Of a DNA stretch of 64,000 bases, positions 9,105-55,286 are shown one piece after another (positions within the stretch are counted from its first letter, which is position 1; each line of letters begins with the position of its first letter). The notes under the pieces are model-generated. The model was given only the letters and a program-made list of their open reading frames with translations. It was not told the origin of the DNA and ran no database searches. Source of the stretch: Clostridia bacterium (GTDB taxonomy: Bacteria > Bacillota > Peptococcia > DRI-13 > PHAD01); NCBI GenBank assembly GCA_034003745.1, contig JAVEYA010000001.1, positions 43-64,042 of the forward strand, read 5' to 3'. The position numbers and the translations under genes are program-made.

Positions 9105-9214
9105 CCCCTCATGAACACATTAAATACATCTATATGATATACTATTTACGTCATACATCGCAATAATGTTACTCTATTTTATTAATAGTTAAATTATATT
9201 ATACTTATCGGTAT

Positions 9215-29801: not shown

Positions 29802-30410
29802 ATGAAAGCAGTAAATTTACGGGTGCCCCTTCTTATATTTGCATATGCTGCCATATTCCTCGCCGCAGTATTCTGCATCCTGACCCTTTACATGGAAAAC
29901 GCCGCTATGCAGCAGGATTTGCTGGAATGGCAGCAACGAACCCATGAACTAAATCAAGAATTGGATAGAATCAACCGCTACAGCAGCAAATACGGCGCCA
30001 CGCCGGAAATTACAGCCGCAGTATTCAGAGAAAGTGAAAGACATAATCTGGACCCTGGCGTTATGTTTGAACTGATCAAGCTGGAGAGCGACTTTGACGC
30101 CCGGGCTATCAGTTCCCACGACGCCCACGGTCTTTGCCAGATCCGCCCCATTACGGCGAGGGAACTCTCACAGGAATTGAACATACCCTATTCCGATGAG
30201 CTGCTTTTTAATACGGATTATAACATCATGCTGGGATCCTATTACTTATCTAAGCTGCTTCATTCCTACGGTTACGATTACCATCACGCCCTTACCGCTT
30301 ACAACAGAGGTCCCGCCGGTCTGAAAAAGTACTTAAACCGCACCGGAACCGCCGTCAGCTCCTATTCCGCCAGAATATTTGAGGGAAGCCTGGCCGCCGT
30401 CATACAGTAA
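29802..30410 (+). CDS. Membrane-anchored lytic transglycosylase (SLT domain)
   Basis: LESDFDARAISSHDAHGLCQIRPITAREL ... AYNRGPAGLKKY, with an N-terminal TM. Confidence 0.85.
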   Translation: MKAVNLRVPLLIFAYAAIFLAAVFCILTLYMENAAMQQDLLEWQQRTHELNQELDRINRYSSKYGATPEITAAVFRESERHNLDPGVMFELIKLESDFDARAISSHDAHGLCQIRPITARELSQELNIPYSDELLFNTDYNIMLGSYYLSKLLHSYGYDYHHALTAYNRGPAGLKKYLNRTGTAVSSYSARIFEGSLAAVIQ

Positions 30411-30436
30411 CGCACAATCAATTCCTCCGTTGTCAT

Positions 30437-30467
30437 AAGCCGCGAGTGTTTACTTGCGGCTTTTTTA
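30437..30467 (+). terminator. Intrinsic terminator after the SLT gene
   Basis: AAGCCGCGAG (30437-30446), a 6-nt loop, CTTGCGGCTT (30453-30462, contains one G-T wobble), then T-rich TTTTATTT. Confidence 0.8.
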
Positions 30468-30593
30468 TTTAACCATTTGTTTTCCTGTGCCTAACCTTTT
30501 CGACATATTTTGGCAGGAAATTACCAAAATAAACAGAATTATTATTATCATTCCGATTTTATGTAAGATTATGTAAACGAGGTGTTGCCTGCA

Positions 30594-32066
30594 ATGAATA
30601 CTAAAGCGCGTAAAATCTTCGCCAGACTGGCTTTGCTGACCGCTCTGGCGTTTTTTGCCTGCGCCTTCCCCTTCTCGCTCCTGGCCGGAACAAATCCTAT
30701 GGATATATTCGCCGGCAGCGGACTTCCGGGCAGCGCGGACGGTCCCCTGAACAAGGCGGGGTTGAACGTACCCTACGGCCTTGCCGTGAACAGCAAAGGA
30801 CACCTTTATATAGCCGACTCTTATAATAACACTGTCCGGATGATAGCCAACGGCATTATGACCACCGTCGCCGGCGGCAATAAAGGCGGTGACGCCTATG
30901 GATTCCCCCGGGGCGGCTACAACGACGGGGAGGCCCTAAAGGCCCGTTTCAACCGGCCCCGCGCTGTGGCTGTAGATAAGTCCGGAGTCCTCTATGTGGC
31001 CGACACAGGCAATCATGCCATTCGCAAGATCGCCGGGGGAAAAGTAACTACCTTGGCGGGAACGGGACAACCCGGATATAAGGATGGAACAGGTAAAGAC
31101 GCCCGCTTCAACTCTCCCGCCGGACTGGTCATAGACGCCAAAGGCAACCTCTATGTCGCCGATACTTTAAACCAGGTGATCCGGAAAATCACGCCTGCCG
31201 GTGTAGTCAGTACTTATGCCGGAAAAAGCGGGGACGGCGGCTATAAGGACGGTTCCGTTTCCTCCGCCTTGTTTAATGAACCTTCCGCCCTTGCCTTGGA
31301 CAGCCGGGGAGACCTCTATATCGCCGATACGGGCAATCAATTGATCCGTAAAGTATCCTCCGGAGAAGTGACCACCGTGGCCGGCAGCCACGGCGCGCTG
31401 CTGGAAGACACGGGCTATTGCCGGGGCGCTTACCGGAACGGCCCGGCGTTAGCTGCCGCCTTCAATTTCCCCAAGGGGTTAACAGTCTTGGATAATGGCG
31501 TTATCATCATCGCCGACACCTGGAATTCCCGCATCCGGGCCATCACTGGGGACAAAGTTATTACCCTGGCGGGTACCGGTGAATACGGCAGCCGGGCTGA
31601 TTCCCTCGATACGGCTATCCTGGCCGCCCCGGCGGGCGTAGTCTATAAAGATAAGCTGCTCTATATCTCCGATAGCGATAATCACCTGATCTGGCAGCTT
31701 CCCTTAGACCCGGATAACTTGCAGGCCCGGCCGGACTACACCCCGCCCGCGGAAGAAATTCAAATCTGGGTGGACGGTGAGAAACTGCTTACCGATGAGA
31801 ATACCCGGCCGTACATCTTCAGTGACCGGACCATGCTGCCCCTTCGGGCTATCTGCGAGAAAGCGGGTTGGAGCGTAGATTGGGCGGAAGACGGCACGAT
31901 TACGGTAACCCAGGAAGATAAGCAAAAGGCGTTTCTCCCCGGAGACGTCAACTTACAGAATAAAAACGGCTTTACTATGACAGGCGTGCGTTATCTGGCC
32001 GAGAGCATGGGCTGTACAGTGGATTGGCTGCCCGAATACCGGGCTGTCTCCGTGCGGTCCCGTTAG
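30594..32066 (+). CDS. Secreted NHL-repeat beta-propeller protein with a C-terminal copper-amine-oxidase-N-terminal-like (stalk) domain
   Basis: Signal peptide MNTKARKIFARLALLTALAFFACAF. There are at least 6 repeats of the type PYGLAVNSKGHLYIADSYNNTVRMI / PRAVAVDKSGVLYVADTGNHAIRKI. The C-terminus is RTMLPLRAICEKAGWSVDWAEDGTITV. The ATG at 30594 follows GAGGTG. Confidence 0.85.
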   Translation: MNTKARKIFARLALLTALAFFACAFPFSLLAGTNPMDIFAGSGLPGSADGPLNKAGLNVPYGLAVNSKGHLYIADSYNNTVRMIANGIMTTVAGGNKGGDAYGFPRGGYNDGEALKARFNRPRAVAVDKSGVLYVADTGNHAIRKIAGGKVTTLAGTGQPGYKDGTGKDARFNSPAGLVIDAKGNLYVADTLNQVIRKITPAGVVSTYAGKSGDGGYKDGSVSSALFNEPSALALDSRGDLYIADTGNQLIRKVSSGEVTTVAGSHGALLEDTGYCRGAYRNGPALAAAFNFPKGLTVLDNGVIIIADTWNSRIRAITGDKVITLAGTGEYGSRADSLDTAILAAPAGVVYKDKLLYISDSDNHLIWQLPLDPDNLQARPDYTPPAEEIQIWVDGEKLLTDENTRPYIFSDRTMLPLRAICEKAGWSVDWAEDGTITVTQEDKQKAFLPGDVNLQNKNGFTMTGVRYLAESMGCTVDWLPEYRAVSVRSR

Positions 32067-32077
32067 GAGTGAGTGAG

Positions 32078-34807
32078 ATGAAAAGAATCCGTACAGTGTT
32101 GATATTAACGTTGATTCTGTCCCTGCTTCTGCCCGCCATGCCGCTTGTGGCGGCGGATACCCTGAAAGCGGCTAAGATCGTGTCCGTTACAGGGGACGTC
32201 AAGGTGCTCAGGGCCGGGGGGGAACGGCTTTTCCCCGCTTTCCAGGGCATGGGCCTGACCAAAGGAGACACTGTGGTTACCGGAGGGGACGGCAAGGCTG
32301 CTATTGATCTGGACCCGGATAAAGAGCTGATCATCGCGCCCAATTCCAAAGTAATGATCAGCGAGCTGATAGAATCATTAGAGACGAATACGGACCAAAC
32401 CCTCTTAAATCTTAAAGCGGGGCAGGTCTATATCAATGTCAAAAAACCCCTGACTACGGGTTCTAAATATGAAATCAAAACCTCTACTGCCGTCATGGGG
32501 GTCAGAGGTACCAAGTTCTTTGTCAATCTGTCCGGGGGCGGTCAAGCCGAAATCGTCACCCTGGAAGGCGTGGTAACCGTCTCGATTCCGCAGACGGTCA
32601 CGGGGCCCGATGGGACGCCTCTTACCCAGATGACGGAAATCCGCTTGGAGCCGAATCAGATGTTTGTGCAAACCGGCGAGGGTACCGGCCAATATGATTT
32701 GACCACCCTGACCGGTAATACATCTTTGAGCCTCTTTGTTCTGGAAACCCTTCAGCAAATCAGTTCACAGCAGCCGGACCTGATTAAGCCTGAACTGCTG
32801 CAAAACCTGGAACAGAAAATCGAGCAGGCCAGACAACAGGAACAGCAGCGTCAACAGCAGCTACAGCAGCAAGAAGAAGACGAAGCCAACAGCCCGGGTA
32901 TTGACTACGGCAGCGGCGCCGGGGACGGAACCGGCAACCGCCGCGGCGGCAATGATAATCAGAACGATGAAGACGAGGATGAAGATGAAGACGACGAGGA
33001 TGAGGATGAGGATGAGGATGGGGATGGGGAGGCGGTGGAAAACGGCTGGGTCAAGAGCGTTATTACTTCCATCGGAAGCCACTGGTATCCCTGGGGTGAA
33101 ACGGATATCGCCGTAGATAGCGACGGCATGCCCCATGTTATCTATACGGCCGGTTCGATAAAATACCGCTATTGGGATGGAAGCTCCTGGCAGGATCGGG
33201 GCTTTCAGTCGGGTACTTCCCGCGGGGCGCTGACCATAGAACAATATGAGGACGGGCAAAATCGCATCCACGTTTCCTGTGCGGATGGCGGTCGTCTGGG
33301 ATATTCAATGATTGAGGAAGGTGGGGGGCTTTACCATTCCTTTGGATCCGAAGAAGCGGAGGTGGAGGGCTCAGCTATTGCTGTGCTTCCCTACTACAAT
33401 GACTATTCGGGTGTGGTGGGAATCAGCTATTATGACGGCACCGGGGGTGATTTGCGCTTCAGATTTGATACGGATACCGGCGATGTTTTACCGGATACTT
33501 GGAGTAATCCTATTCATGTAGCCGGAGTAGAAAGCGACGCCGGAAAGTATTCCTCCCTGGCCTTTACCGGGGAAGGGCAAGTTCTGATTGCCTACTATGA
33601 TGACGACGGCGAAACAGGTTCCCTGAAGCTGGCTGCTATTGCCGATCCGTGGGAGGCTGAACCCCAAATAGAATTAATGGATATTGACGCAGAAGCGGGA
33701 GGGAATGTGGGTCAATACGTCTCTTTGGCTCTGGATAGTGAGGGGCAGCCTCACCTAGCTTACTACGACGAAAGCAATGGGGGCCTCAAGTATGCCACCA
33801 ATCCTACCCTGCAGTATATTGAAGAGGAATGGAATATAGGCGATTGGCAGATCGACATCGTGGACACGGTGGGAGATGTAGGACAATACGCCTCCCTGGC
33901 CCTGGACAACGGCGGCAAGCCCCATATCAGCTACTATGATGCCACCAACGAGGACCTCAAATATGCTGCCAATACCGATGGGGCATGGCAGCTTACCCTT
34001 GTGGACAGCAAGGGGGACGCCGGGCGGTACAGCGCCATTGCCATCGAACCTGCCAATAACGTGCCGCAGATCGCCTATATGGCTCAAAAACATCACTGGG
34101 CGAGCTATAAAGTGAAATACGCCGCTCCGCTGGGGTTTATGAATAAAATTACGCCTGCTGCTATTACCAATGAAATCAGGAATTTCTCCGGGGATATGAC
34201 CATAAGCTATGCGTCTTATGGTTCAGGGCTGTATTTTATGAAATGCGGTGAGTATACTTTAAAGGCTAATGAGCCTGATGATTTCGATATATCGACGGAA
34301 TCCAAGACCATTACTTTTAAAAAGAACTATCTAAACAGCTTGGGAGTCGGTACTCATAAAATCAAGATTTTATTTGCTAATAACGGCCTTCCTGCTGTCC
34401 TTACCATCAATATAACCGACCATGATCATGGTATTTATACGATTGGCAGCATTCCCATCCCCCAAGACGAAGAAGATTTTGCCCAGTTTATAGCTGGAGC
34501 CGTCGATGGGGTGCTGCTGATTGAAGCTACCGGACATGACCCACTATCCATTGTTATGGGGAGCTACGATACAAGAGCGGAATTTCTGGAAAGCCTGAAC
34601 AGCGCGTTGTTAGACGGGTTGGGAGTAAATGATTCCGAAGAACCGTATGTGGAAGCTTTCTTTACCGCCGGGGATTATCTTAAACTTGTTTATAATAATC
34701 ACTATGGATCTGTGGTACCTCTCCGGATTGTGGAGCCCGGGGAAGTTCCAGACGGCTACGATATTTTTTTCGGGGACGACCTTTATATTAAAGAAAAAGC
34801 GTATTAG
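32078..34807 (+). CDS. Secreted 909-aa FecR-domain protein with a Q-rich coil, an acidic D/E tract, a propeller-like repeat region and a C-terminal Ig-like region
   Basis: - Signal peptide MKRIRTVLILTLILSLLLPAMPLVAA.
- FecR-type segment GDVKVLRAGGERLFPAFQGMGLTKGDTVVTGGDGKAAIDL...AVMGVRGTKFFV.
- Repeats GQYVSLALDSEGQPHLAYYDESNGGLKYA / GQYASLALDNGGKPHISYYDATNEDLKYA / GKYSSLAFTGEGQVLIAYYDD / GRYSAIAIEPANNVPQIAYM.
- The ATG at 32078 follows GGAGTGAGTGAG, 11 nt after the NHL gene stop. Confidence 0.85.
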   Translation: MKRIRTVLILTLILSLLLPAMPLVAADTLKAAKIVSVTGDVKVLRAGGERLFPAFQGMGLTKGDTVVTGGDGKAAIDLDPDKELIIAPNSKVMISELIESLETNTDQTLLNLKAGQVYINVKKPLTTGSKYEIKTSTAVMGVRGTKFFVNLSGGGQAEIVTLEGVVTVSIPQTVTGPDGTPLTQMTEIRLEPNQMFVQTGEGTGQYDLTTLTGNTSLSLFVLETLQQISSQQPDLIKPELLQNLEQKIEQARQQEQQRQQQLQQQEEDEANSPGIDYGSGAGDGTGNRRGGNDNQNDEDEDEDEDDEDEDEDEDGDGEAVENGWVKSVITSIGSHWYPWGETDIAVDSDGMPHVIYTAGSIKYRYWDGSSWQDRGFQSGTSRGALTIEQYEDGQNRIHVSCADGGRLGYSMIEEGGGLYHSFGSEEAEVEGSAIAVLPYYNDYSGVVGISYYDGTGGDLRFRFDTDTGDVLPDTWSNPIHVAGVESDAGKYSSLAFTGEGQVLIAYYDDDGETGSLKLAAIADPWEAEPQIELMDIDAEAGGNVGQYVSLALDSEGQPHLAYYDESNGGLKYATNPTLQYIEEEWNIGDWQIDIVDTVGDVGQYASLALDNGGKPHISYYDATNEDLKYAANTDGAWQLTLVDSKGDAGRYSAIAIEPANNVPQIAYMAQKHHWASYKVKYAAPLGFMNKITPAAITNEIRNFSGDMTISYASYGSGLYFMKCGEYTLKANEPDDFDISTESKTITFKKNYLNSLGVGTHKIKILFANNGLPAVLTINITDHDHGIYTIGSIPIPQDEEDFAQFIAGAVDGVLLIEATGHDPLSIVMGSYDTRAEFLESLNSALLDGLGVNDSEEPYVEAFFTAGDYLKLVYNNHYGSVVPLRIVEPGEVPDGYDIFFGDDLYIKEKAY
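32963..33031 (+). repeat. GAW-codon microsatellite-like tract encoding NDEDEDEDEDDEDEDEDEDGDGE
   Basis: GATGAAGACGAGGATGAAGATGAAGACGACGAGGATGAGGATGAGGATGAGGATGGGGATGGGGA is read directly. It is preceded by a CAG/CAA-rich tract (about 32830-32880). Confidence 0.9.
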
Positions 34808-34823
34808 AAGGAGATCACCCATT

Positions 34824-35648
34824 ATGCCAGCTGACTTTATTGTCACCTTTTGGGGAGTACGGGGCTCCCGGCCTGTGCCGGGGCCTGAGACAACAAAATA
34901 CGGCGGCAATACGCCCTGCGTGGAAGTGCGAATTGGGGATAGATTAATAATTTTGGATGCGGGGACAGGTATCTGCGAACTGGGCTGCAAGCTGGACCGG
35001 ACGGAGGAACCCCTGCAGGGGGATATTCTCCTGACCCATACCCATTGGGATCATATCCATGGCTTGCCCTTCTTTAAACCCGCTTATAAAGGGGATAATC
35101 GCTTTTGTCTGTACGGAGCCAGGCCAAAAGAGACCTCCCTGGAGTCGTTGCTGAAACGGGCTATACTGGCCCCCCTCTTTCCCATTCCCCTGGAGAAAAT
35201 GGGAGCTGACTTTCGTTTCCGTGAGACTGCCCCGGGGGAGGAACTGGACCTGGGACAGGGAATCACCGTGCGGAGCGCTGCCAACAACCACCCCGACGGC
35301 GGTCTCTCTTACCGCGTGCAGTATGGGGATAAATCCTGCTGCTACGTGACGGATACGGAGCACGGAGGGAGCGCGGACCAGGCCCTTCAGGAGCTGTGCC
35401 GGGGCGCCGGGGCGATTATCTATGACGCCCATTTTACGGAGGACGAGTATCCCCGCTATAAAGGCTGGGGCCACTCCACCTGGCGTGAGGGCGTGAAGCT
35501 ACTGGAAGCGTCCGGAGCCAAACAACTGCTCCTTTTTCATCATCACCCCGAGCGTACCGATCAGGAAATGGCTGAGCTGGAGGAGCTCCTCCGCGGACAG
35601 TATACCCATGTCCGGGCTGCCCGGGAAGGGCTGGTGCTCAGCCTGTGA
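34824..35648 (+). CDS. MBL-fold metallo-hydrolase (274 aa)
   Basis: MPADFIVTFWGVRGSRPVPGPETTKYGGNTPCVEVRIGDRLIILDAGTG, plus the metal motif HTHWDHIHG. The ATG at 34824 follows GGAG. The stop overlaps the cyclase GTG start (GTGA at 35645-35648). Confidence 0.85.
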   Translation: MPADFIVTFWGVRGSRPVPGPETTKYGGNTPCVEVRIGDRLIILDAGTGICELGCKLDRTEEPLQGDILLTHTHWDHIHGLPFFKPAYKGDNRFCLYGARPKETSLESLLKRAILAPLFPIPLEKMGADFRFRETAPGEELDLGQGITVRSAANNHPDGGLSYRVQYGDKSCCYVTDTEHGGSADQALQELCRGAGAIIYDAHFTEDEYPRYKGWGHSTWREGVKLLEASGAKQLLLFHHHPERTDQEMAELEELLRGQYTHVRAAREGLVLSL

Positions 35649-37426
35649 ACACGCTGAAAACTTATCGCAAATTCTTTCTTATCATTATACTGGGGATAGC
35701 CTTTTGTCTTTTAGCCTGGCTGGATACCTTTGAGACCCTGGAAAATAAGCTGCAGGATACTTTTCTTCAAAAAAGCGGTCCGGTAGATACTCAGATTGTT
35801 CTAATCGGTATCGACGACCAAAGTCTGACGGATTTGGGGCGCTTCCCCTGGTCCCGCTATGTCTACGCCGAATTATTCCGCATTCTGGCTCAGGGGGAGC
35901 CGGCGGCCGTCGGTATCGACCTGATCTTCAGCGAACCCTCGTCCGACCCGGCGGAAGACGCCGCTCTGGTAGAGTCTATCCAGGCGGCTGGGAACGTGAT
36001 TCTTCCCGTCTATGCCAACCTGGAAGGCTATGCGGACGGGCGGGGCGCTATCCAGACGGATAATCTGGTCGTACCCTTCCCCGATTATCCGCCGGAATTT
36101 CTCACCGGCCATATCAATACCTTTCCCGATCCGGACGGCATCATCCGCAAGACCGCCCTCTACCTGGGCTACCGGGGCGAAACCGTACCCAGCTTTGCCT
36201 GGCGGATTTATGAACAGTTTTGCAAGTCCACCGGCCGTGTTCCAAGGTCATTGCATCAATTTCCTTTAGACCCTATCAAGCGTCTGGAAATCGCCTATAC
36301 CGGTGTGCCCGGGGATTTCGAACATGTCGGCTTTTCCCAGGTTATTGCCGGGGAAATAGACCCGGAATTCTTTCGGAATCGCATCGTCCTGATTGGTCCC
36401 TACACCGTGGGGATTGACGATTATTATTTTACCCCGCTGCAACCCGAGACCCCCATGTACGGAGTGGAGATTCACGCCAATATTCTGCAGAATCTTCTTC
36501 ATGATACCTATAAGGAACGTATCGCTTATCCGGTGATCCTCCTGGTCATTCTCTTTTTCGGTGCGGCCTCCGCCCTGGGCTTTAACCGGCTCAGCCCGTT
36601 TCAGGGACTTGCCCTGCTTGCCGGCCTGGCCGCCGCATATCTCTTTATAGCCAAGCAGTTGTACGCGCAAGGCTATATCCTTTCCCTGCTCTATCCCCTT
36701 ACTTTCCTGGCCCTGGCTTACCTCGCAGCCCTGGGCGCCAACTATGTGACGGAGATGCTGGAACGCCGCCGCATTACCGGGGTTTTTTCCCGCTATGTGG
36801 CGCCCCAGGTCGTCAATAAGCTTCTGGCAGGAGGTGAGGCCGCCCTGCAGTTGGGTGGCTCCCGCAAAGAGATTTCCGTCTTGTTCGTAGATATCCGCGG
36901 CTTTACCCCCCTTTCTGAGGCGGCTGCGCCGGAGGAAGTGGTGGAAATCCTTAATGAATATCTGACCTTGGTGGCCAACGCCATCTTTCGGTACGGCGGG
37001 ACCCTGGATAAATTTATCGGCGACGCGGCCATGGCCCTTTTCAACGCGCCCCTGGATCTGGACGATCACTGTTTTCAGGCGGTCCAAGCGGCCTGGGCTA
37101 TGAAGGAAGGGGCTGTTCCCCTGCAGAAAAGGCTGCAGGAGAAGTTTGGGCGTAACGTGCAGTTCGGCATCGGGGTCAACACGGGCCCGGCGGTTATCGG
37201 CAATATCGGAGCCAGTTTCCGTATGGACTACACTGCCATTGGCGATACGGTGAACACGGCGGCCCGCCTGGAGAGCAACGCTCAGCCCGGACAAATTCTT
37301 ATTTCCGAAGCTGTTTACGAACAAGTCAAAGAAAAAGTGGAGGCCGCCTCCCTTGGAGAAATCAAGGTCAAAGGCAAAGCCCAAGGAGTTCCGGTCTATC
37401 AGTTGGACGGCGTCAAAGATAATTAA
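35645..37426 (+). CDS. CHASE2-sensor class III nucleotidyl (probably adenylyl) cyclase
   Basis: - N-terminal TM plus CHASE2 pattern (VLIGIDDQSLTDLGRFPWSRYVYAELFRILAQGEPAAVGIDLIFSEPS).
- About 3 TM segments.
- Cyclase domain VLFVDIRGFTPLSE ... GGTLDKFIGDAAMALFNAP ... IGVNTGPAVIGNIG..RMDYTAIGDTVNTAARLES.
- The Lys in DKFIGD and Thr in DYTAIGD fit the Lys/Thr pair of class IIIb adenylyl cyclases; this alignment was done by eye. Confidence 0.88.
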   Translation: MNTLKTYRKFFLIIILGIAFCLLAWLDTFETLENKLQDTFLQKSGPVDTQIVLIGIDDQSLTDLGRFPWSRYVYAELFRILAQGEPAAVGIDLIFSEPSSDPAEDAALVESIQAAGNVILPVYANLEGYADGRGAIQTDNLVVPFPDYPPEFLTGHINTFPDPDGIIRKTALYLGYRGETVPSFAWRIYEQFCKSTGRVPRSLHQFPLDPIKRLEIAYTGVPGDFEHVGFSQVIAGEIDPEFFRNRIVLIGPYTVGIDDYYFTPLQPETPMYGVEIHANILQNLLHDTYKERIAYPVILLVILFFGAASALGFNRLSPFQGLALLAGLAAAYLFIAKQLYAQGYILSLLYPLTFLALAYLAALGANYVTEMLERRRITGVFSRYVAPQVVNKLLAGGEAALQLGGSRKEISVLFVDIRGFTPLSEAAAPEEVVEILNEYLTLVANAIFRYGGTLDKFIGDAAMALFNAPLDLDDHCFQAVQAAWAMKEGAVPLQKRLQEKFGRNVQFGIGVNTGPAVIGNIGASFRMDYTAIGDTVNTAARLESNAQPGQILISEAVYEQVKEKVEAASLGEIKVKGKAQGVPVYQLDGVKDN

Positions 37427-37458
37427 GCGGAGGCGCCATCCTCTGCTTTCTTTTTTTT
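37427..37458 (+). terminator. Intrinsic terminator closing the four-gene operon
   Basis: GCGGAGG cgccat CCTCTGC followed by TTTCTTTTTTTT. Confidence 0.85.
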
Positions 37459-37576
37459 CAGACCTTTGCTATAATAAAGTGCGGACAAAGATGTTCTTTT
37501 TTTCGGGAATTTCTTTGTTTTTTCTTTATATTATTTCCAGGAAAATTCTGGCTTAAAAAATTGAGGAGTGATGTGG

Positions 37577-39343
37577 ATGGATGTTAAAGCGATGATGCGG
37601 GCAATGGATGTGGCCCTGGGCAAAACACCGGCGGATCTGGCCATTACCAACGCTAAATTGGTCAACGTGGCCACTCGCCGGGTGGAAGAAGCGGATATCC
37701 TGGTTGCGGAAGGTATCATCGCGGCGATTCAGGAGCGCGGCAGTGCAAAAAAAGGCGCCGCCACACAGGAACTGGACGCAGGCGGCAGGTATCTTCTGCC
37801 CGGACTGCTGGACGCCCATACCCATATCGAGATGTCTTTTTTATCGGCCGTACCGTACGCTGAGTGCGTCTTACCCCTCGGCACGACGGGTATTATGGTC
37901 GATCCTCATGACATGGTGAACGCCACCGGCCTGGAAGGGCTCCGGCATTTTGCCGCAGAAATGGCTTCCACACCCCTTAAATGCTACCTGATGGTTCCCC
38001 CCTGTATTCCTTCTTCGCCGGATTTGGAAGACGCCGCTATCAATATGACCCTCCAAGACATGAAGAAAGCCTTCAATCTGCCCAGCGCCCACGGCATTGC
38101 GGAAACCATGGACTTTTCCCGGGTGCTGGCCCAAGAGCAGGAGCTCCTCCATATCCTGTCCTGGTCCCGTGAACAGAACCTTCTGGTGGACGGGCACTGC
38201 CCGGAATTGCGGGGGCGTGCCCTGCAGGCCTATGCCCTGACCGGTCCGGTTCTCACCGACCATGAATCCGTGACCGTTGAGGAAATGCAGGAGAAATACC
38301 GTCTGGGTATGCGGGTGATTATTCGCCGGGGTTCTTTGAGCGAATCCGCCTCCGCCGGCGACTTTGTCAATTCCCTGGCTGATACCAGCAATGTCCTGCT
38401 CTCCACCGACGGCTGCATTACCGTTCATGATATCCTCACCAAAGGCCATATGAACTATGCCCTGCGCTGCGTAGTGGAGGAAGGCGTCGACCCGCTGGTC
38501 GCCGTACAGATGGGCACCATCAACGTCGCCCGGGCCTATGGACTTTCCCATCGGGTCGGAATCATCGCGCCCGGCCGCGCCGCCGATCTGGTCCTCGTCA
38601 ATAATCTGCATGAATTCAAGGTGGAGGCTGCATACCTTAACGGCCGGCGCCTTCCTGCGCCCGGGAAGTACCAACTACCGCGCTATGCGTATCCCCAGCA
38701 GGTTCTGGAAACGGTGAAGCTGAAGGAAGTCGCCGCAGAGGCCTTCCGTATTAAAACGCCTGCAGCCGGCGGTATGGTAAAAGTACGCGCTATCGCCATC
38801 ATCGACGAAACCGTAGCCACAGCCGAGGAAATACATGAAATGCAGGCTGTGGGCGGCGAACTGCAGATTGACCCCTCCCGTGACTTACTCAAAGCGGCGG
38901 TCTTCGAAAGATATGGCCGCGCCGGAACCCACGCTACGGCCATAGTCAAAGGCTTTGGCCTGAAGAAAGGAGCTCTGGCCGGCAGTGTGGCCCAGGACAC
39001 ACAAAACATCGTCGCAGTGGGCGCTTCAGATGAAGATATGGCTTTGGCCGTCAATACCCTCAAAAAACAGCATGGCGGCATCGTCCTGGCCGAGGGAGGA
39101 AAAATTTTGGCCAATATCAAACTCCCCATCGGCGGTATCATGACCGACATCCCGCCTGAACAACTGCAGACTGCCATGGCCGACTTGAACCAAAAAGCGA
39201 AAGCCCTGGGCAGTACGCTTACCGACCCCATTTTTTCCTTATATATGCAAATTGCGCTGGCAGTTATCCCGGAAATACGCCTGACCAACCGCGGCCTGGT
39301 TCATGTCGCTTCGGCACAGTTTATCCCCTTATGGATAGATTAA
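37577..39343 (+). CDS. ade: Adenine deaminase
   Basis: DLAITNAKLVNVATRRVEEADILVAEGIIAAI ... LLPGLLDAHTHIEMS, an amidohydrolase fold about 590 aa long. The start is uncertain (37568 / 37571 / 37577). 37577 has the best spacing from GAGGAG. Confidence 0.9.
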   Translation: MDVKAMMRAMDVALGKTPADLAITNAKLVNVATRRVEEADILVAEGIIAAIQERGSAKKGAATQELDAGGRYLLPGLLDAHTHIEMSFLSAVPYAECVLPLGTTGIMVDPHDMVNATGLEGLRHFAAEMASTPLKCYLMVPPCIPSSPDLEDAAINMTLQDMKKAFNLPSAHGIAETMDFSRVLAQEQELLHILSWSREQNLLVDGHCPELRGRALQAYALTGPVLTDHESVTVEEMQEKYRLGMRVIIRRGSLSESASAGDFVNSLADTSNVLLSTDGCITVHDILTKGHMNYALRCVVEEGVDPLVAVQMGTINVARAYGLSHRVGIIAPGRAADLVLVNNLHEFKVEAAYLNGRRLPAPGKYQLPRYAYPQQVLETVKLKEVAAEAFRIKTPAAGGMVKVRAIAIIDETVATAEEIHEMQAVGGELQIDPSRDLLKAAVFERYGRAGTHATAIVKGFGLKKGALAGSVAQDTQNIVAVGASDEDMALAVNTLKKQHGGIVLAEGGKILANIKLPIGGIMTDIPPEQLQTAMADLNQKAKALGSTLTDPIFSLYMQIALAVIPEIRLTNRGLVHVASAQFIPLWID

Positions 39344-39376
39344 TTTATAAAAAGAGAATAGGAGAGGTGTTCACCA

Positions 39377-40441
39377 TTGTTGGATTTACAGGATATCTTA
39401 AGTATTATTGGCGCCTTATTTGACGCCATTGCCTCTGGTTTAGTGGCCTTATACTATGGTTTTGCAGCGTTCCCGTCCGGGCTGGCCTTCGTGGTCGGCG
39501 TCATCGGAGCGCTGGCCTTCGGCCTGGTTACCCCCATTTCTTTTCAGGCGGAAACCCTCGTCCTCGTAGGCGGTCTGGGTAAGAACATCAAGGAACGGTT
39601 ATCCATTGTTATCTTAGCCGGCATCATGATGGGCATTTTAGGCGCCTTCGGTTTTCTGGGAGCCGTCCTTGATTTTATCGGTGAGGATATCCTGTCCGGC
39701 ATGCTGGCAGGGGTAGGCATCATTCTGGCCCGCGCCGGCCTGACCCTGATGAAGGAACATTATCCTTCCGGCATCGTGTCTATGATTGTAGCGCTCAGCG
39801 TCTTCTTCTTTCATGGGGATTTGGCCTACATGATTGCCGCTTCCATCCTGGCCGGCACCGCTGTCTATGTTTTCATGACCAAAGGCCGGACGAATGCCGG
39901 GCTGCAGGATTTAGACCCTGTCTTAACCGCCCGCAAACTAAACTTTACCAAGCCGATCTTCAACAATTGGGGCGTCTGGCGCGCCGCTTTGGCCGTCTGC
40001 ACTCTGCAGATAGGGGCTAACATCAGTTACGGCACTATCACCGGACAGATTGCCAACCATCCCGTCGATATCGACAAGCTGACCGTGGTCTCGGCCCTGG
40101 CCGATTTTGTCAGCGCCCTCTTCGGCGGCGCCCCCATGGAATCCATCATTGCCGTTACAGCCACCGGGACACATCCGGTAACTGCCGGTATCATCTTTAT
40201 GGCAATCATGGCCGTCATTCTCTTAAGCGGGCTCCTGCCCAAACTGGCCCGCTGGATCCCCATCAGTTCCACCTCCGGCTACTTGTTTGTATTGGGCGCC
40301 GTCCTGGTGGTTCCTGACAACATGGCTGCCGCTGTAGGGGGAAATCCGCTGGTCGGCAGCATTACCGCAGTCGTTACGGCCATTTCCGATCCTTTCATCG
40401 GCATGCTGGCCGGTATTATTGTGAGGATGATTACGGGATGA
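39377..40441 (+). CDS. Polytopic membrane protein, putative nucleobase permease (function inferred from context only)
   Basis: 354 aa with about 10 hydrophobic segments. TTG start, 7 nt after GGAGAGGTG. It sits between adenine deaminase and a PRTase, and its stop overlaps the PRTase ATG. I could not assign it to a family with confidence. Confidence 0.55.
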   Translation: MLDLQDILSIIGALFDAIASGLVALYYGFAAFPSGLAFVVGVIGALAFGLVTPISFQAETLVLVGGLGKNIKERLSIVILAGIMMGILGAFGFLGAVLDFIGEDILSGMLAGVGIILARAGLTLMKEHYPSGIVSMIVALSVFFFHGDLAYMIAASILAGTAVYVFMTKGRTNAGLQDLDPVLTARKLNFTKPIFNNWGVWRAALAVCTLQIGANISYGTITGQIANHPVDIDKLTVVSALADFVSALFGGAPMESIIAVTATGTHPVTAGIIFMAIMAVILLSGLLPKLARWIPISSTSGYLFVLGAVLVVPDNMAAAVGGNPLVGSITAVVTAISDPFIGMLAGIIVRMITG

Positions 40442-40983
40442 GCAGATTTTATATGCTGGAGATAGCCGGACTAAAAAGAGAACTGCCGGTTATCCCCATC
40501 AGTGAGAATTTATCTATCGCCAGCTTTGTTATCCTGGGTGATACGGAACTGGTCTGCGCGGCGGCGCCCCTGCTGGCCGCAAAGCTGCCGCCTGTGGACC
40601 TTTTGGTCACGGCCGAAGCTAAGGGCATCCCCCTTGTCTTCGAGCTTTCCCGTCTGTTGAACTTAAAGCAGTACATTGTCGCCCGCAAAAGCGTCAAACC
40701 CTACATGGAAGAACCTTTGATCGACCAAGTGATTTCTATCACCACACAAAAAAAGCAGACGCTATGCCTGGACCGTAAAGACGCCCGCGAGATCGCCGGA
40801 AAAAGAGTCGCTATCATCGATGATGTTATCAGCACCGGTGAATCCATTGAGGCAGTGGGCCGGCTGGTCAAAGAAGCCGGCGGCAAAGTAGCGGCCAAAG
40901 CGGCCATCCTGGCCGAAGGCGACGCCGCGAAAAGAGACGATATCCTCTTCCTGCAGGCGCTCCCGGTGTTTCCGCATTCTTGA
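40438..40983 (+). CDS. Type I phosphoribosyltransferase (adenine/purine PRT-like)
   Basis: PRPP-binding motif VAIIDDVISTGESI; 181 aa. ATGA overlap with the permease gene. Confidence 0.8.
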   Translation: MSRFYMLEIAGLKRELPVIPISENLSIASFVILGDTELVCAAAPLLAAKLPPVDLLVTAEAKGIPLVFELSRLLNLKQYIVARKSVKPYMEEPLIDQVISITTQKKQTLCLDRKDAREIAGKRVAIIDDVISTGESIEAVGRLVKEAGGKVAAKAAILAEGDAAKRDDILFLQALPVFPHS

Positions 40984-41028
40984 ATAATACAGGATTATAG
41001 GTTAATTTTTAAAAAGTAGGTGACGCAT

Positions 41029-41223
41029 ATGAGTACAGTTTACTATTGCCCCGAATGCCGCAATGAACTCGAAGAAATATCCGGCTGCGGCTCCGTAAGT
41101 TATTTTTGCCATACCTGCAAAAAGCTGATTTCCCGCAAGCAAATCATAACCAAAGAAGAAGCGCAAACAGCCGGGGCTGAACAGAGCGGCCCCGATAAAA
41201 CAGGTAAAGAACAGTCGTCCTAA
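41029..41223 (+). CDS. Small double-CxxC zinc-ribbon protein (YfgJ/DUF1407-like)
   Basis: MSTVYYCPECRNELEEISGCGSVSYFCHTCKKLISRKQI. The ATG at 41029 follows AGGTGA. Confidence 0.6.
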   Translation: MSTVYYCPECRNELEEISGCGSVSYFCHTCKKLISRKQIITKEEAQTAGAEQSGPDKTGKEQSS

Positions 41224-41328
41224 GTTTTCCCTAGTTATATTGTATACTTAAGAATTTACCCTTGCATAACCCGGATAACGTGCTACAATATCACTAAGTT
41301 TAGATAATTGAATAACCAATCGTCAAGA

Positions 41329-41418
41329 GATTACAATGATGTTTTCTCTGATTTCGGCGAAAAGCTGATGATGGAAACAAAGACGTTTTCTTCCGCAAGG
41401 GGAAAATGTCTTTTTTTT
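41329..41418 (+). promoter_or_regulatory. amtB-glnK leader: strong intrinsic terminator with overlapping alternative hairpin (transcription attenuator)
   Basis: The terminator pairs GACGTTTTCTTC (41382-41393) with GGGGAAAATGTC (41399-41410), followed by T8 (41411-41418), 36 nt before the amtB ATG. The hairpin GGAAAC-AAAGAC-GTTTTC (41373-41390) uses the 5' arm of the terminator. A related 18-nt unit, GATTAC-AATGAT-GTTTTC, lies at 41329-41346. Confidence 0.7.
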
Positions 41419-41454
41419 ATTTAAATAACTTATTAAACAAAGGAGGAAAAAAAG

Positions 41455-42822
41455 ATGGACTTTCAAGTAATGATTGACACTATGTGGGTATTGATCGCCG
41501 GTTTTTTGGTCTTTTTTATGAATCTTGGCTTCGCCTGCGTGGAAAGCGGTTTCGCCAGATCTAAGAACACAGTAAACATTTTATCCAAAAACTTTATCGT
41601 CTTTGCAGTATCGTCGCTGGGCTTCCTGCTCTTAGGCTGGGGCATTATGTTCGGTGACGGCGGCGGATTTATGGGTACTTCCGGCCTGTTCTTCGTAAGC
41701 GGCGCCGATAACTCTCCCGCCATCGGAGACGCTTATCAGGGCGTGTACTCCGCAATTGGCTGGACCGGCATTCCGCTATGGGCCAAATTCTTCTTCCAGC
41801 TGGTGTTCTGCGGGACGGCCGCCACCATCGTCTCCGGAGCAGTGGCGGAACGTGTTAAGTACATCTCCTTTATTGTCTTTTCATTTGTCCTGACCTTAAT
41901 CATTTATCCCATCGTGGGCCATTGGATTTGGGGCGGCGGCTTCCTGGCGGACTTAGGCATGTGGGACTTCGCAGGCGGCACCGTAGTTCACTCCGTCGGC
42001 GGATGGGCAGCATTAGCCGGCATTATTGTTCTGGGTCCCCGGGTTGGTAAATATACCAAAGACGGAAAAATTCATCCTATCCCCGGTCACAGTATGGCTC
42101 TGGCTACCATAGGCGGTTTCATCCTCTGGCTCGGCTGGTTCGGATTCAACCCCGGCTCCACCATGGGTCTGGCGGATCCCGGCGCGGTCGCCCACATCGT
42201 TATAACCACGAATACCGCGGGTATTGTCGCCGTCTTAACTGCTACCGCTACTTCCTGGATTATCATCGGTAAGCCCGACCTCGGCATGTCCATCAACGGC
42301 TTGCTCGCCGGCTTGGTAGCGATCACTCCCTGCTGCGCTTTCGTCAGCGTTCCCAGTTCCCTGATTATCGGCGCAATTGCCGGTATCGTCGTAGTACTCT
42401 CCGTCATGGCTTTCGACCGCGCCAAGCTGGACGACCCGGTCGGCGCCACCTCCGTTCACCTGGTCTGCGGCGTAATGGGCACGATTATGGTCGGCCTCTT
42501 TGCAGAAAATGGCATCACCGGCGCTGCTACCGGCAACGGACTCTTCTTCGGCGGCGGAACTACCCTTTTAATTGCCCAGGTTATCGGTGTAATCGCTGCA
42601 GGGGCGTTTGTCTTTATCTCTTCTTTCATCGTTTGGAATATTATTAAGGTCGTCCTGGGCGCCCGGGTTCCGCTCAGCGAAGAAATTGCCGGCCTGGATA
42701 TCGGCGAACACGGTAACTCCGCTTATCCTGACTTCATGACTCAGAGGGTCTCCTACGCTCTGATTTCCAAGGATATTAACGTCACTGCGGTAGAATCTGC
42801 AAAGGGGGTTAAAGCGTTATGA
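41455..42822 (+). CDS. amtB: Ammonium transporter
   Basis: 455 aa, Amt/MEP family (FACVESGFARSKN, VVHSVGGWAALAG, GFNPGS). Confidence 0.95.
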   Translation: MDFQVMIDTMWVLIAGFLVFFMNLGFACVESGFARSKNTVNILSKNFIVFAVSSLGFLLLGWGIMFGDGGGFMGTSGLFFVSGADNSPAIGDAYQGVYSAIGWTGIPLWAKFFFQLVFCGTAATIVSGAVAERVKYISFIVFSFVLTLIIYPIVGHWIWGGGFLADLGMWDFAGGTVVHSVGGWAALAGIIVLGPRVGKYTKDGKIHPIPGHSMALATIGGFILWLGWFGFNPGSTMGLADPGAVAHIVITTNTAGIVAVLTATATSWIIIGKPDLGMSINGLLAGLVAITPCCAFVSVPSSLIIGAIAGIVVVLSVMAFDRAKLDDPVGATSVHLVCGVMGTIMVGLFAENGITGAATGNGLFFGGGTTLLIAQVIGVIAAGAFVFISSFIVWNIIKVVLGARVPLSEEIAGLDIGEHGNSAYPDFMTQRVSYALISKDINVTAVESAKGVKAL

Positions 42823-43160
42823 AACATATCAAAGCCGTAATCAAACCGGAAAAACTTTCCGATGTGCGTGACGCGTTAGAAAATCTAGGCTGCTATGGCG
42901 GCGCCATGATTACCGATATTATGGGCCAGGGTACGCAAAAAGGGATCACCCAGGCCTGGCGCGGCGAGAAATTCCAAATGGACCTGCTGCCCAAAGTATC
43001 CGTCGACATAATCGTTAAAGACGAAGACGCGGAAAGCGTGAAAAAAGCCATTCTGGAAAGCGCCTGCACAGGCTCCATCGGCGACGGCAAAATCTTTGTT
43101 TATAACGTAGAAGAAGTTATCAGAATCAGAACCGGCGAAAAAGACGACAAAGCAATCTAA
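42819..43160 (+). CDS. glnK: P-II nitrogen regulatory protein (GlnK type)
   Basis: MKHIKAVIKPEKLSDVRDALENLG...TGSIGDGKIFVYNVEEVIRIRTGE. ATGA overlap with amtB. The T-loop reads GQGTQKGITQAWRGEKFQMDL; Phe sits at the position of E. coli Tyr51. Confidence 0.93.
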   Translation: MKHIKAVIKPEKLSDVRDALENLGCYGGAMITDIMGQGTQKGITQAWRGEKFQMDLLPKVSVDIIVKDEDAESVKKAILESACTGSIGDGKIFVYNVEEVIRIRTGEKDDKAI

Positions 43161-43185
43161 ATCCTGCTTGAAAACCCGCTCAAAA

Positions 43186-43222
43186 GAAAACTGCCCGGTT
43201 CAAATGCCGGGCAGTTTCTTTC
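43186..43222. terminator. Bidirectional terminator between the convergent glnK and feo operons
   Basis: AAACTGCCCGG (43186-43196) pairs with CCGGGCAGTTT (43205-43215). The stem is flanked by an A-rich run upstream and a T-rich run downstream. Confidence 0.85.
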
Positions 43223-43234
43223 TTGCTCTTGCTA

Positions 43235-43384
43235 TTAGTCGCAGGAATCCTTGACGGAGCACGTGCAGCTATGGGGGCATCCGGAGCACTTCACGCCTCT
43301 TTTTTTATCACGGACGATTTTTAAAACAGCCAAACCGATAATAGCCGCTAATACAATGGCGACAACAATATTTACCGTATTCAT
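43235..43384 (-). CDS. FeoB-associated Cys-rich small membrane protein (49 aa)
   Basis: Not in the ORF track. Its ATG overlaps the feoB TGA (ATGA at 43381-43384). Translation: MNTVNIVVAIVLAAIIGLAVLKIVRDKKRGVKCSGCPHSCTCSVKDSCD. It has one TM and a Cys-rich tail, as in the family usually found after Firmicute feoB. Confidence 0.75.
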   Translation of the reverse strand: MNTVNIVVAIVLAAIIGLAVLKIVRDKKRGVKCSGCPHSCTCSVKDSCD

Positions 43385-53720: not shown

Positions 53721-55286
53721 CTAATATAAATCTGTGTGTTCTTGTAATGCTTTGGTTTCTTTCTTCTTGATAATCGTATCAATGCGCAGGATCGCTTCGG
53801 CGACCTCGCCGGCTGCCTTCAGCGCATATTTTTTGACCAAGGCCGGGTCATAGACGCCCAGCTCCGTCAAATCCCGGATTTCTCCACTGTCGGAATCGAT
53901 CCCCAGGGAGTCCTTACCGCTTTCTACCTGCGCGGCGGAGACGTCACCCAGCTTTTCCAGCGGATTGAAGCCTGCATTTAAAACTATTTGCGAAAAGGGC
54001 GCTTTTAATGCGGCAATGACACAATCCAAACCATAGGCCGCCATCCCTTTGGCTTCCCTTCTTAAAGACTCTATCTCGCGGGCTACGGCCAATTCCACCG
54101 TGCCGCCGCCGGGGATAATTCCTCCCCGCACTGCCGCCTGTACCGCCGAGGCCGCATCTTTGGCAATTCTTTCCCGTTCCCCGGCGACTTCCTCGGTAGA
54201 GGCCCCCACCAGGATGGTCGCCTGGGCTTTCGCACTTCCGCCGATAATGCGGACATGCTCCAGCTTTTCATCGAAGACAGCCTCTTGGGCTTGACCAAAA
54301 TACTTTTCCAGCTCCGCCGGCGCCTTCTTTAAGGCGGACTTTTTAAGAAGCTTGGCGCCGCAGTGCTCCGCCGCCCGGCGCAGTTCCTTGTTCATCACCC
54401 GGGACAAGACCATAACCCCGGCGTCGGTCAGAATCTCTTCAGCCCGGTCGTGAACGCCTCGGTCCGCCAGGACAAGGTTCATCCCTAATTGCGCGATTTT
54501 TTGGATGTTCTCCTTAAATTCTTCCTGCAGCAGGATGTACCGGTTGAAACCGGATTCAGTAGTCAGCGCTTCTTCTTCAATTTCTTCCGGCTCCAGCGCG
54601 TCGTCTATAATCAAGAGTTTAACCGGGGTAAGCTGTTTGGGCATTTCCGCATTCAGAGGCTCCTTGCCGATAATTACGCCGGATATCACCTCATTAACTG
54701 CGCCAACTTCAGCCTGCACCAGCTCAGAGAGCTTAAACGTTACTTCTTTTAATTTCTCCGGGCCAATCAACCGGGCTGCTTCAATCACCAATTGGGCAAT
54801 ATCCGTATGGCCCCGCCCTGCTACCAACGCCACATCCCATAAGGCCGGATCATTCAGATCGGAGATTTCCCGCTTCTTTTCATCCAGGACTTGCAGGGCC
54901 TTAGCAACGCCGGTACGCATTCCTTCAATTACTTTTATTACAGGGACGCCTTTTAAAACCTGCGCTACCCCTTCACTGATCAGATGCCCCGCCATAATTG
55001 TCGCCGTGGTCGTACCGTCGCCGATTTCCGCCTGCTGGGCTTTAGCGATATTAATCAGCATACGCGCGGCCGGATGATTCACATCCATCAGCTCCAGAAT
55101 CGTCACGCCGTCATTGGTGATGACCACGTTCCCGAACTGGTCGACCAGCATGGTATCCAGACCTTTGGGGCCCAAAGTGCCTTCCACGGCCTGGTTGACC
55201 GCCCGGATCGCATTGGCGTTGGTCATTAAAGCCGCCAACTTTTCATCCACTTCGGAATTTGGCGCGGCCTGTTGTTTAACATTCAC
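53721..55286 (-). CDS. Thermosome-like (group II-type, TCP-1/cpn60 family) chaperonin encoded inside the hrcA-dnaK operon
   Basis: [65 protein letters not shown] is the thermosome/CCT signature; GroEL would read GPKGRNVVL. 521 aa. The GTG start overlaps the hrcA stop (GTGA at 55283-55286). Confidence 0.9.

Follow-up and report, generated by a model that had tools for sequence, protein, structure and literature searches.

In the literature consulted, the CHASE2 sensor domain has no known environmental factor that it recognises (PMC5192318). Published work already describes FecR-domain genes paired with CHASE2 genes, including a four-gene cluster that encodes a cyclase, a phosphodiesterase, a FecR protein and a repeat protein (PMC9239204; PMC5192318). 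We analysed a 64,000-nucleotide stretch of the genome of a spore-forming Clostridia bacterium (GenBank assembly GCA_034003745.1, contig JAVEYA010000001.1, positions 43 to 64,042 of the forward strand; hereafter the window) that carries a predicted operon of four plus-strand genes between positions 30437 and 37458. These genes encode a secreted NHL protein (g1), a secreted FecR-domain protein (g2), a metallo-beta-lactamase-fold (MBL) enzyme (g3) and a CHASE2 membrane cyclase (g4). The operon adds a Gram-positive example to the FecR/CHASE2 signalling neighbourhood, which is known but mechanistically unsolved. It stands out locally by its NHL partner, a BNR-like propeller tail on the FecR protein and the loss of an HD-GYP gene.

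Every adenylate cyclase found in Campylobacterota carries a CHASE2 sensor, and most are clustered with a cAMP phosphodiesterase, a FecR-domain protein and a TPR protein that were inferred to act in one pathway; the cluster was described from genomes only, and its spread was inferred to be horizontal (PMC9239204). The window operon likewise combines a CHASE2 class III cyclase and a candidate cyclic nucleotide phosphodiesterase with two exported proteins, one with a FecR domain and one built from repeats. Unlike the Campylobacterota, the window host is Gram-positive and has no outer membrane. Its repeat protein has NHL repeats and a Cu_amine_oxidN1 domain in place of TPR (no operon product matched a TPR domain in Pfam), and its FecR protein is a secreted protein of 909 residues with a sialidase-like propeller.

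In Burkholderia, the ‘BiofilmReg’ operon encodes a response regulator, a LysM-FecR protein, a CHASE2 histidine kinase and a DUF4136 protein; there, as in a Pseudomonas aeruginosa gene pair, the LysM-FecR gene adjoins the CHASE2 histidine kinase gene (PMC5192318). The likeness to the window lies in a gene for an exported FecR protein directly beside one for a CHASE2 transmembrane sensor, with very short gaps. Unlike the window operon, BiofilmReg has a histidine kinase/response regulator output, its FecR protein carries LysM instead of a propeller, and it includes no phosphodiesterase.

To our knowledge, the only CHASE2 cyclase system with genetics is that of Sinorhizobium meliloti. Its clr-cyaD1-smc02177-smc02178 locus resembles the window operon in setting a CHASE2 adenylate cyclase beside an exported FecR protein. 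cAMP/Clr induces the FecR-domain gene smc02177, a neighbour of cyaD1 and clr, and a mutant in this gene has the same phenotype as the cyclase mutant (PMC5498481). The plant cue, uL2, is relayed by the outer-membrane protein NsrA (PMC5498481; PMC13001267). This NsrA relay, a FecR neighbour that is a Clr target and an adjacent CRP-type regulator are features that the window does not share.

The FecR domain (Pfam accession PF04773) of the Escherichia coli FecI/FecR/FecA system is an extracytoplasmic protein–protein relay module. g2 shares this domain but is not a member of that system, as a cleavable-type signal peptide replaces the anti-sigma domain and transmembrane anchor. The g2 FecR domain starts at residue 64, right behind the signal peptide, with no cytoplasmic anti-sigma domain and transmembrane anchor. 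There are no sigma70_r2/r4 or TonB receptor genes near g2, where the neighbours encode SLT, NfeD, FloA and adenine deaminase proteins. An anti-sigma reading of the FecIRA type was ruled out by this architecture and these neighbours.

With a probability of roughly 55%, we read the operon as one multi-protein, outward-facing sensory module that controls cAMP, with the MBL protein as its reset enzyme. The FecR domain, as a constant adaptor, would make contact with the ectodomain of CHASE2. An extracellular cue, probably of a cell-surface or glycan type, would be captured or presented by the g2 tail, which varies between lineages, and by the g1 NHL propeller; Cu_amine_oxidN1 may hold g1 at the cell wall. 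Cue binding would shift the activity of the cyclase dimer and hence cAMP. g3, translationally coupled to the cyclase, would then hydrolyse the cyclic nucleotide and reset the signal.

The cyclase itself fits this role. A transmembrane scan predicts one helix at residues 10-28, an outward-facing CHASE2 domain and three further helices at residues 293-363 of g4. Residues D416, K456, D460, T530, N537 and R541 are invariant in 14 homologues. Based on alignment to adenylate cyclase structures, we take D416 and D460 to bind metal, N537 and R541 to stabilise the transition state and K456 and T530 to specify adenine. The nearest solved catalytic domains are those of bacterial adenylate cyclases, P. 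aeruginosa CyaB (1.3e-36) and Spirulina CyaC; no solved chain in the Protein Data Bank matches the CHASE2 domain by sequence. g4 thus looks catalytically competent and adenylate-type, in line with the original prediction, which had described a CHASE2 membrane cyclase that would drive cyclic nucleotide synthesis.

We placed the operon in a census of 80 CHASE2-cyclase loci (one genome per species, nearly all from Bacillota) whose cyclases are 37-57% identical to g4. Open reading frames (ORFs) were called in six frames and grouped with iterated hidden Markov models built from the window domains and by all-against-all clustering; as an internal control, the density of each family within 5 kb of the cyclase was compared with that beyond. 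FecR genes occur in 65 of the 80 loci (120 versus 10 per Mb, p = 2e-14). They lie at most 5 kb from the cyclase in 64 loci and share its strand in 63; in 36 loci the gap is at most 200 nt, and thirteen FecR/cyclase junctions have a 4-nt overlap. Where at least 6 kb of flank is available on both sides, 33 of 37 loci have a FecR gene. GAF-HD-GYP genes are found in 45/80 loci (63 versus 18 per Mb, p = 1e-4) and NHL genes in 23/80 (35 versus 2 per Mb, p = 2e-5), 16 of the latter loci having the NHL plus Cu_amine_oxidN1 architecture of g1.

All four operon families come together in 7 loci (L003, L006, L010, L031, L048, L053 and L068), in shuffled orders such as NHL-MBL-cyclase-FecR, MBL-FecR-cyclase-NHL and MBL-FecR-NHL-cyclase. 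At the level of genome sequence, these distributions show that FecR genes, and NHL genes in one large subgroup, are co-inherited with CHASE2 cyclases across Bacillota. The adjacency is therefore not peculiar to this genome, as the families recur around cyclases that have diverged to 37-73% identity. Two refuting conditions named with the original prediction, an adjacency confined to this genome and a lack of HMM support for the domain assignments, were thus examined and did not refute it, which supports a functional link among the four families. The original prediction described FecR genes as frequent neighbours of CHASE2 genes, which the census and the published systems bear out (PMC9239204; PMC5192318; PMC5498481).

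FecR proteins in these loci share a constant start and little else. The FecR domain begins ~36 residues into the ORF, and a hydrophobic segment precedes it in 56 of 59 related ORFs. Total lengths span 189 to 2825 residues. The tails are RCC1 propellers, a BNR-like propeller, Glucodextran_B, Big_13, Flg_new, Calx-beta or nothing recognisable.

A broader proposal, which we put forward tentatively and would sooner doubt than accept, is that CHASE2 receptors throughout bacteria have FecR proteins as general and obligatory subunits for ligand capture. A constant FecR ‘plug’ would dock on CHASE2, and what is sensed would depend on exchangeable tails (BNR-like or RCC1 propellers, LysM, Ig-like repeats); in Firmicutes the NHL propeller would be a third subunit. 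If true, CHASE2, an orphan since it was described, would gain a first general mechanism of input, and the failure to find a small-molecule ligand for it would be explained. The operon would not surprise a signalling specialist, but it offers a tractable entry to the long-open question of CHASE2 activation. The most concrete lead is the FecR partner, nearly always beside CHASE2 across phyla and outputs. The Bacillota version is simpler to work with because there is no outer membrane, and the cultured Desulfofalx alkaliphila, together with carbohydrate-type FecR propellers, makes the question experimentally approachable.

Several results, concerning the FecR partner, g3 and transcription, weigh against a sensory module with g3 as its reset enzyme. 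For the FecR partner, we found no physical or genetic evidence of FecR-CHASE2 contact in this analysis or in the searched literature. In a mirror-tree comparison, FecR correlated with CHASE2 at r = 0.83 and with the cytoplasmic catalytic domain at r = 0.86. Because the second value is at least as high as the first, the signal reflects co-inheritance with the whole cyclase gene and no specific interface. The earlier proposal that the NHL and FecR proteins act on CHASE2 thus has co-inheritance in its favour but no signal specific to CHASE2. Its casting of FecR as a sensing partner is weakened by S. meliloti, where the FecR neighbour, a target of Clr, is dispensable for perceiving the plant signal (PMC5498481).

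These points favour an alternative in which FecR and NHL proteins, once exported, act as outputs of the cAMP pathway or work alongside it, for example as effectors at the envelope or cell surface. They would be required for the phenotype that the cyclase supports without being its ligand-sensing subunits; CHASE2 would then sense its cue alone or through another partner. S. meliloti, with a cAMP/Clr-induced smc02177 and perception through NsrA, provides a precedent, and the tails, large and adhesin-like (Big_13, Flg_new, Calx-beta, propellers), are reminiscent of surface proteins. However, in Bacillota the FecR gene usually lies in the cyclase operon itself, often with overlapping stop and start codons, an arrangement that argues for matched stoichiometry rather than for a regulated target. 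FecR pairing also persists where the output is a histidine kinase (PMC5192318), and so FecR appears tied to the CHASE2 sensor rather than to cAMP. We regard an output role as rather improbable.

For g3, the sensory-module reading requires an enzyme that hydrolyses cyclic nucleotides. g3 has no hydrophobic segment in the transmembrane scan, so it is predicted to be cytoplasmic. Its metal-site residues (H72, H74, D76, H77, H156, D177 and H239/H240) are invariant in 30 homologues. The NCBIfam model NF041851 (‘cyclic nucleotide-degrading phosphodiesterase’) aligns over nearly the full length of g3 (1.1e-9), but the score of 38.1 bits is far below that model's 400-bit cut-off. Precomputed annotations place Anti-Pycsar_Apyc1 (Pfam accession PF23023) on g3 and its homologues, whereas our local Pfam copy gave no match to that family for g3 (searched up to E = 10) or its orthologue. 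Given this disagreement, we treat the link to Apyc1 as weak. Against solved proteins, the profile of the g3 family finds RNase Z best (5e-15) and Apyc1 weakly (1e-3).

An AlphaFold2 model of g3 (pLDDT 88) has PhnP-family enzymes, RNase Z, YhfI, ELAC1, Apyc1, yeast PDE1 and a Brucella MBL protein crystallised with AMP/GMP as fold neighbours. The fold search does not discriminate among substrates, since PhnP-family enzymes, RNase Z, YhfI, Apyc1 and PDE1 all score at TM 0.6-0.7. YhfI-type MBL phosphodiesterases prefer cAMP/cGMP, and Apyc1 is a relative with relaxed specificity (PMC9117128). With these class II MBL phosphodiesterases (YhfI, Apyc1, PDE1), g3 shares an HxHxDH di-metal site and a common fold (Foldseek E 1e-10 to 1e-13). 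Unlike them, it is just 17-21% identical to YhfI, Apyc1 and PDE1 at a TM-score of ~0.6-0.7, and RNase Z and PhnP-family enzymes score equal or better.

On the basis of the profile matches, fold neighbours and NCBIfam alignment, we assign g3 to the phosphodiesterase-type MBL proteins, with cyclic nucleotide hydrolysis as a candidate activity only. A beta-lactamase or a PhnP (phosphonate) enzyme was ruled out, since every neighbour by fold or sequence is a phosphodiesterase and the genomic context lacks phn genes. The JGI name for g3, ‘phosphoribosyl 1,2-cyclic phosphodiesterase’, seems to have been transferred at the level of the family. In the public annotation, g3 (P0121, 231 residues) begins at an internal methionine. 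Homologues of 274-275 residues align from residue 1 of the 274-residue ORF over 99-100% of its length, which supports the start at 34824 and indicates that the public call is N-terminally short. The gains for annotation are thus an adenylate cyclase sensory operon, a phosphodiesterase in place of a beta-lactamase and a corrected g3 start.

The relatives of the operon contain an additional, fifth gene. In the closest of them (two contigs from metagenomes or metagenome-assembled genomes (MAGs), and D. alkaliphila), whose cyclase is 73% identical, the order is NHL, FecR, MBL, GAF-HD-GYP, cyclase, in unrelated flanks. The MBL stop codon overlaps the GAF-HD-GYP start codon (ATGA), and the latter gene encodes full HD and HHE..DGTGYP motifs. 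Among the relatives, a GAF-HD-GYP gene lies between the MBL and cyclase genes at 10555-12042 in L087 and 8499-9986 in L081. At the window junction (35640-35650) the sequence reads GTGA, with the GTG of the cyclase placed where the relatives have the HD-GYP ATG. Because the cyclase begins at this point and its N-terminus aligns with those of the relatives' cyclases, the HD-GYP gene has been removed cleanly, and no GAF-HD-GYP gene occurs anywhere in the 64-kb window. The window is thus a clean example of the loss of an HD-GYP output gene. In L086 (a 72% relative; 8500-9984) this gene is split into two ORFs of 277 and 211 residues, which suggests that it is decaying there and that this clade has lost its c-di-GMP output arm repeatedly.

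The GAF-HD-GYP protein Tlr0485 requires cAMP on its GAF domain for c-di-GMP hydrolysis (10.1101/2021.11.05.467447). Like Tlr0485, the fifth gene of the relatives has a GAF and a full HD-GYP domain; the window contains no such gene. By analogy, GAF-HD-GYP would turn cAMP into c-di-GMP breakdown in the relatives. In the window, where the output gene has been lost, cAMP must act on effectors encoded elsewhere. If true, the window and its relatives would record a natural rewiring of output, from cAMP into c-di-GMP via GAF-HD-GYP, that was lost here.

Two further findings count against g3 as the reset enzyme of the cyclase. First, g3-like MBL genes occur in only 13/80 census loci, at 17 versus 6 per Mb, and this enrichment is not significant (p = 0.08). 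The neighbourhood census that had been suggested with the original prediction therefore supports FecR and NHL as cyclase neighbours and MBL weakly. Second, the tightest conserved partner of the MBL gene is GAF-HD-GYP and not the cyclase, as judged by gene positions: 6 of 7 census MBL genes lie <100 nt from a GAF-HD gene, and MBL/GAF-HD-GYP overlaps of 4 nt occur in Syntrophomonas-type, ‘Acidobacteriota’ and ‘Methylocystaceae’ MAG contigs, the last two without an adjacent cyclase. The earlier suggestion that the MBL enzyme is a turnover or effector arm accordingly holds in that g3 belongs to a phosphodiesterase branch that includes YhfI and Apyc1, and falters on the identity of this partner.

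An alternative consistent with these findings is that g3 is not a cAMP turnover enzyme but part of a separate MBL plus GAF-HD-GYP cassette, left over after the HD-GYP deletion. It might, for example, clear the linear product of c-di-GMP hydrolysis or cut another phosphodiester. The start of g4 at exactly the position of the relatives' HD-GYP start, the split HD-GYP gene in L086 and the ranking of RNase Z over Apyc1 all agree with such a history. Yet g3 is intact, with every metal-site residue conserved and its coupling to the cyclase kept, and its family-level matches go to cyclic nucleotide-degrading MBL proteins. Its fold neighbours include the cAMP/cGMP-preferring YhfI and AMP/GMP-bound MBL proteins (PMC9117128), and the Campylobacterota clusters likewise pair a cyclase with a cAMP phosphodiesterase. 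We consider a leftover cassette unlikely, though a serious contender.

Other arrangements of these domains were observed. In the Syntrophomonas-type locus L088 (411-9354), an MBL/GAF-HD-GYP pair lies ~4.7 kb downstream of the CHASE2 cyclase with an ABC transporter between them; no FecR gene was called in this stretch, and the linkage is looser than in the clade of the window. In L072 (3071-4918), a 615-residue MBL-like/GAF/GGDEF fusion lies directly behind the CHASE2 cyclase and ties the MBL domain to GAF and c-di-GMP enzymes within one protein.

Similarity to Apyc1 also raises a reading of the operon as a Pycsar-like anti-phage system, in which the cyclase would make a defence nucleotide and the Apyc1-like MBL protein would regulate it. 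The g4 catalytic domain does match PADLOC PycC models (best 1.1e-28), and g3 homologues carry PF23023. The PycC matches, however, reflect homology common to class III cyclases in general; PADLOC gave no match for g2 or g3, and there is no adjacent effector gene (transmembrane or TIR). g4 is also membrane-bound with an extracellular sensor and has the purine/adenine-type K456/T530, and the genomic context is housekeeping. Since the PADLOC search showed generic cyclase homology only, we rejected this and other defence readings; a Pycsar-like system we find scarcely credible.

The third group of unfavourable results concerns transcription. That g1-g4 form one transcription unit is inferred from spacing only, and a consensus scan finds a promoter-like site inside g1 (31479-31507). 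The packing is tight. The ATG of g1, at 30597, lies nine bases downstream of GAGGTG, a purine-rich spacer of 11 nt separates the g1 TAG from the g2 start, the 16-nt g2-g3 spacer includes AAGGAG (the g3 ribosome-binding site), and the g3 TGA stop shares GTGA with the GTG start of g4. Our reading of ORFs, start codons and junctions reproduced this packing as originally described, and scanning and folding likewise recovered the terminators said to bracket the block. The 5' hairpin (30437-30462) folds at -17.2 kcal/mol (z = -5.7, 0/200 shuffles equally stable), and the 3' hairpin (37425-37448) at -12.8 kcal/mol (z = -2.5, 3/200 shuffles equally stable).

These two flanking hairpins are the best terminator-like sites within 28-40 kb. 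The whole terminator scan returned 14 sites versus 13.5 in shuffles, with no overall enrichment, and the promoter scan likewise shows no overall excess. Only the two long-stem terminators therefore carry weight. Scans that do not exceed shuffles overall leave some room for the four genes to be neighbours by chance, or co-expressed for unrelated reasons; the surface proteins, a housekeeping enzyme of RNase-Z-like type and an independent cyclase would then have no common pathway. Against this, the same families surround diverged cyclases in differing orders and contexts, and within the window members of the FecR, NHL, MBL and CHASE2-cyclase families occur in the operon block alone. The census strongly disfavours a chance arrangement, which we hold to be very improbable.

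The exported proteins agree with an outward-facing role for the sensory module. g1 and g2 each have a single hydrophobic segment, at the N-terminus (residues 11-29 and 7-25, respectively), consistent with the signal peptides noted originally; the Pfam assignments of all four proteins, NHL, FecR, Lactamase_B_2 and CHASE2/cyclase, were upheld as well. g1 comprises an NHL beta-propeller (residues ~40-370) and a C-terminal Cu_amine_oxidN1 domain (residues ~392-489), with Pfam matches to NHL (6.9e-45, 6 stretches), TEN_NHL (Teneurin NHL, 7.3e-26) and Cu_amine_oxidN1 (3e-15). Its six NHL repeats would agree with one propeller.

In g2, the FecR region also matches the NCBIfam model LipL45 (8.9e-14, under that model's cut-off), and no solved structure was found for the FecR-containing residues 1-241. 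The repeat region beyond the linker had been called propeller-type. The AlphaFold2 model, made with eight homologous segments in the alignment, concurs, predicting an all-beta fold of ~28 strands in about seven blades (pLDDT 82, pTM 0.88). The best Foldseek matches are the GH145 rhamnosidase BT3686, putative neuraminidases and sugar-binding lectin propellers (E ~1e-10, TM ~0.6), and a weak Pfam BNR_4 match is consistent with these sialidase-like neighbours. The same propeller follows a FecR domain in P0242-P0249, D. alkaliphila included. A set of 5.8 billion proteins contains no full-length homologue of g2; the FecR-plus-propeller part alone recurs. For the C-terminal region, no homologue was found among 80 related loci, and an iterated search gave no match outside the window.

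Table 1. Coordinates of the operon, its protein domains and its flanking elements in the window.
Feature	Position	Strand	Basis or description
SLT transglycosylase gene, upstream neighbour of the operon	29802-30410	+	SLT domain protein
Intrinsic terminator of the SLT transglycosylase gene; 5' boundary of the operon	30437..30470	+	11-bp stem (6 GC pairs) and T-run; hairpin 30437-30462
AT-rich leader, 126 nt	30471..30596	+	Candidate sigma-70-like promoters at 30510-30539 and 30521-30548; g1 ribosome-binding site GAGGTG
g1, secreted NHL protein, 489 aa	30597..32066	+	Signal peptide, six-repeat NHL propeller, Cu_amine_oxidN1
g2, secreted FecR-domain protein, 909 aa	32078..34807	+	ORF and start codon; NCBI ‘FecR domain-containing protein’
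g2 FecR domain, residues 64-166	32267..32575	+	Pfam FecR 5.2e-14; follows signal peptide, residues 1-25
g2 low-complexity linker, Gln-rich then poly-Asp/Glu	32783..33031	+	Weak compositional Pfam match (BUD22) only
g2 predicted seven-bladed beta-propeller, G.Y.SLALD..G.PH..YYD repeat, residues 319-690	33032..34147	+	AlphaFold2 model
g2 C-terminal region, residues 691-909	34148..34804	+	Weak Ig-like/CBM_X2 match, 1.8e-4, under cut-off
g3, MBL phosphodiesterase-type enzyme, 274 aa; candidate cyclic nucleotide phosphodiesterase	34824..35648	+	Lactamase_B_2 1.8e-20; HxHxDH at residues 72-77
g4, membrane class III cyclase, 593 aa	35645..37426	+	Pfam CHASE2 3.6e-55, Guanylate_cyc 2e-29
g4 CHASE2 ectodomain, residues 18-306	35696-36562	+	Pfam CHASE2
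g4 cytoplasmic catalytic domain	36866-37405	+	Pfam Guanylate_cyc
Intrinsic terminator overlapping the g4 stop codon; 3' boundary of the operon	37425..37458	+	9-bp stem and T-rich tail TCTTTTTTTT; hairpin 37425-37448

The promoter candidates in the leader are predicted sites from a consensus scan alone (9/12 matches). An Rfam search of the 126-nt leader and of 29.6-38 kb for a riboswitch or leader RNA gave nothing at E <= 1. g2, g3 and g4 are each 100% identical to proteins of a ‘Clostridia bacterium’ MAG contig.

The operon lies in a stretch of ~16 kb (29.8-45.4 kb; 29802-45393) that is plus-strand except for feoB and contains SLT, the cyclase operon, adenine deaminase, a permease, a phosphoribosyltransferase, amt and feoB. 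This stretch divides two conserved minus-strand runs, nfeD-floA-...-yqfD-phoH-pgpH at 21.7-29.6 kb and lepA-hemN-hrcA-(cpn60)-grpE-dnaK-dnaJ-prmA-rsmE-mtaB-yqeY at 46-59 kb. Because it parts these runs, it is plausible that the operon sits in a region that interrupts conserved Firmicute synteny. Within the second run, the dnaK operon includes a 521-residue Cpn60/TCP-1 chaperonin gene (3e-108; 53721-55286, minus strand) between hrcA and grpE. It resembles the archaeal-like ‘group III’ chaperonins reported for dnaK operons of Carboxydothermus and some other Firmicutes.

Other genes accompany CHASE2 cyclases beyond the window. An AP_endonuc_2 TIM-barrel gene occurs in 30 census loci and lies directly downstream of the cyclase in 29 of them. 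These ~30 Lachnospiraceae/Oscillospiraceae loci (within L015-L071) usually also contain GAF-HD-GYP and FecR genes; in L026 (11696-12487), for example, the product is a xylose-isomerase-like protein of 263 residues. In L084 (10001-21145), which has a 60% identical cyclase, FecR and cyclase genes are followed by genes for DUF3307, a cNMP_binding-Peptidase_C39-ABC exporter, an AprE-like barrel protein, a rotamase, a radical SAM/SPASM enzyme and YcaO. From its gene content, this looks like a cyclic-nucleotide-gated locus for export of a ribosomally synthesised and post-translationally modified peptide or bacteriocin, downstream of the same sensor.

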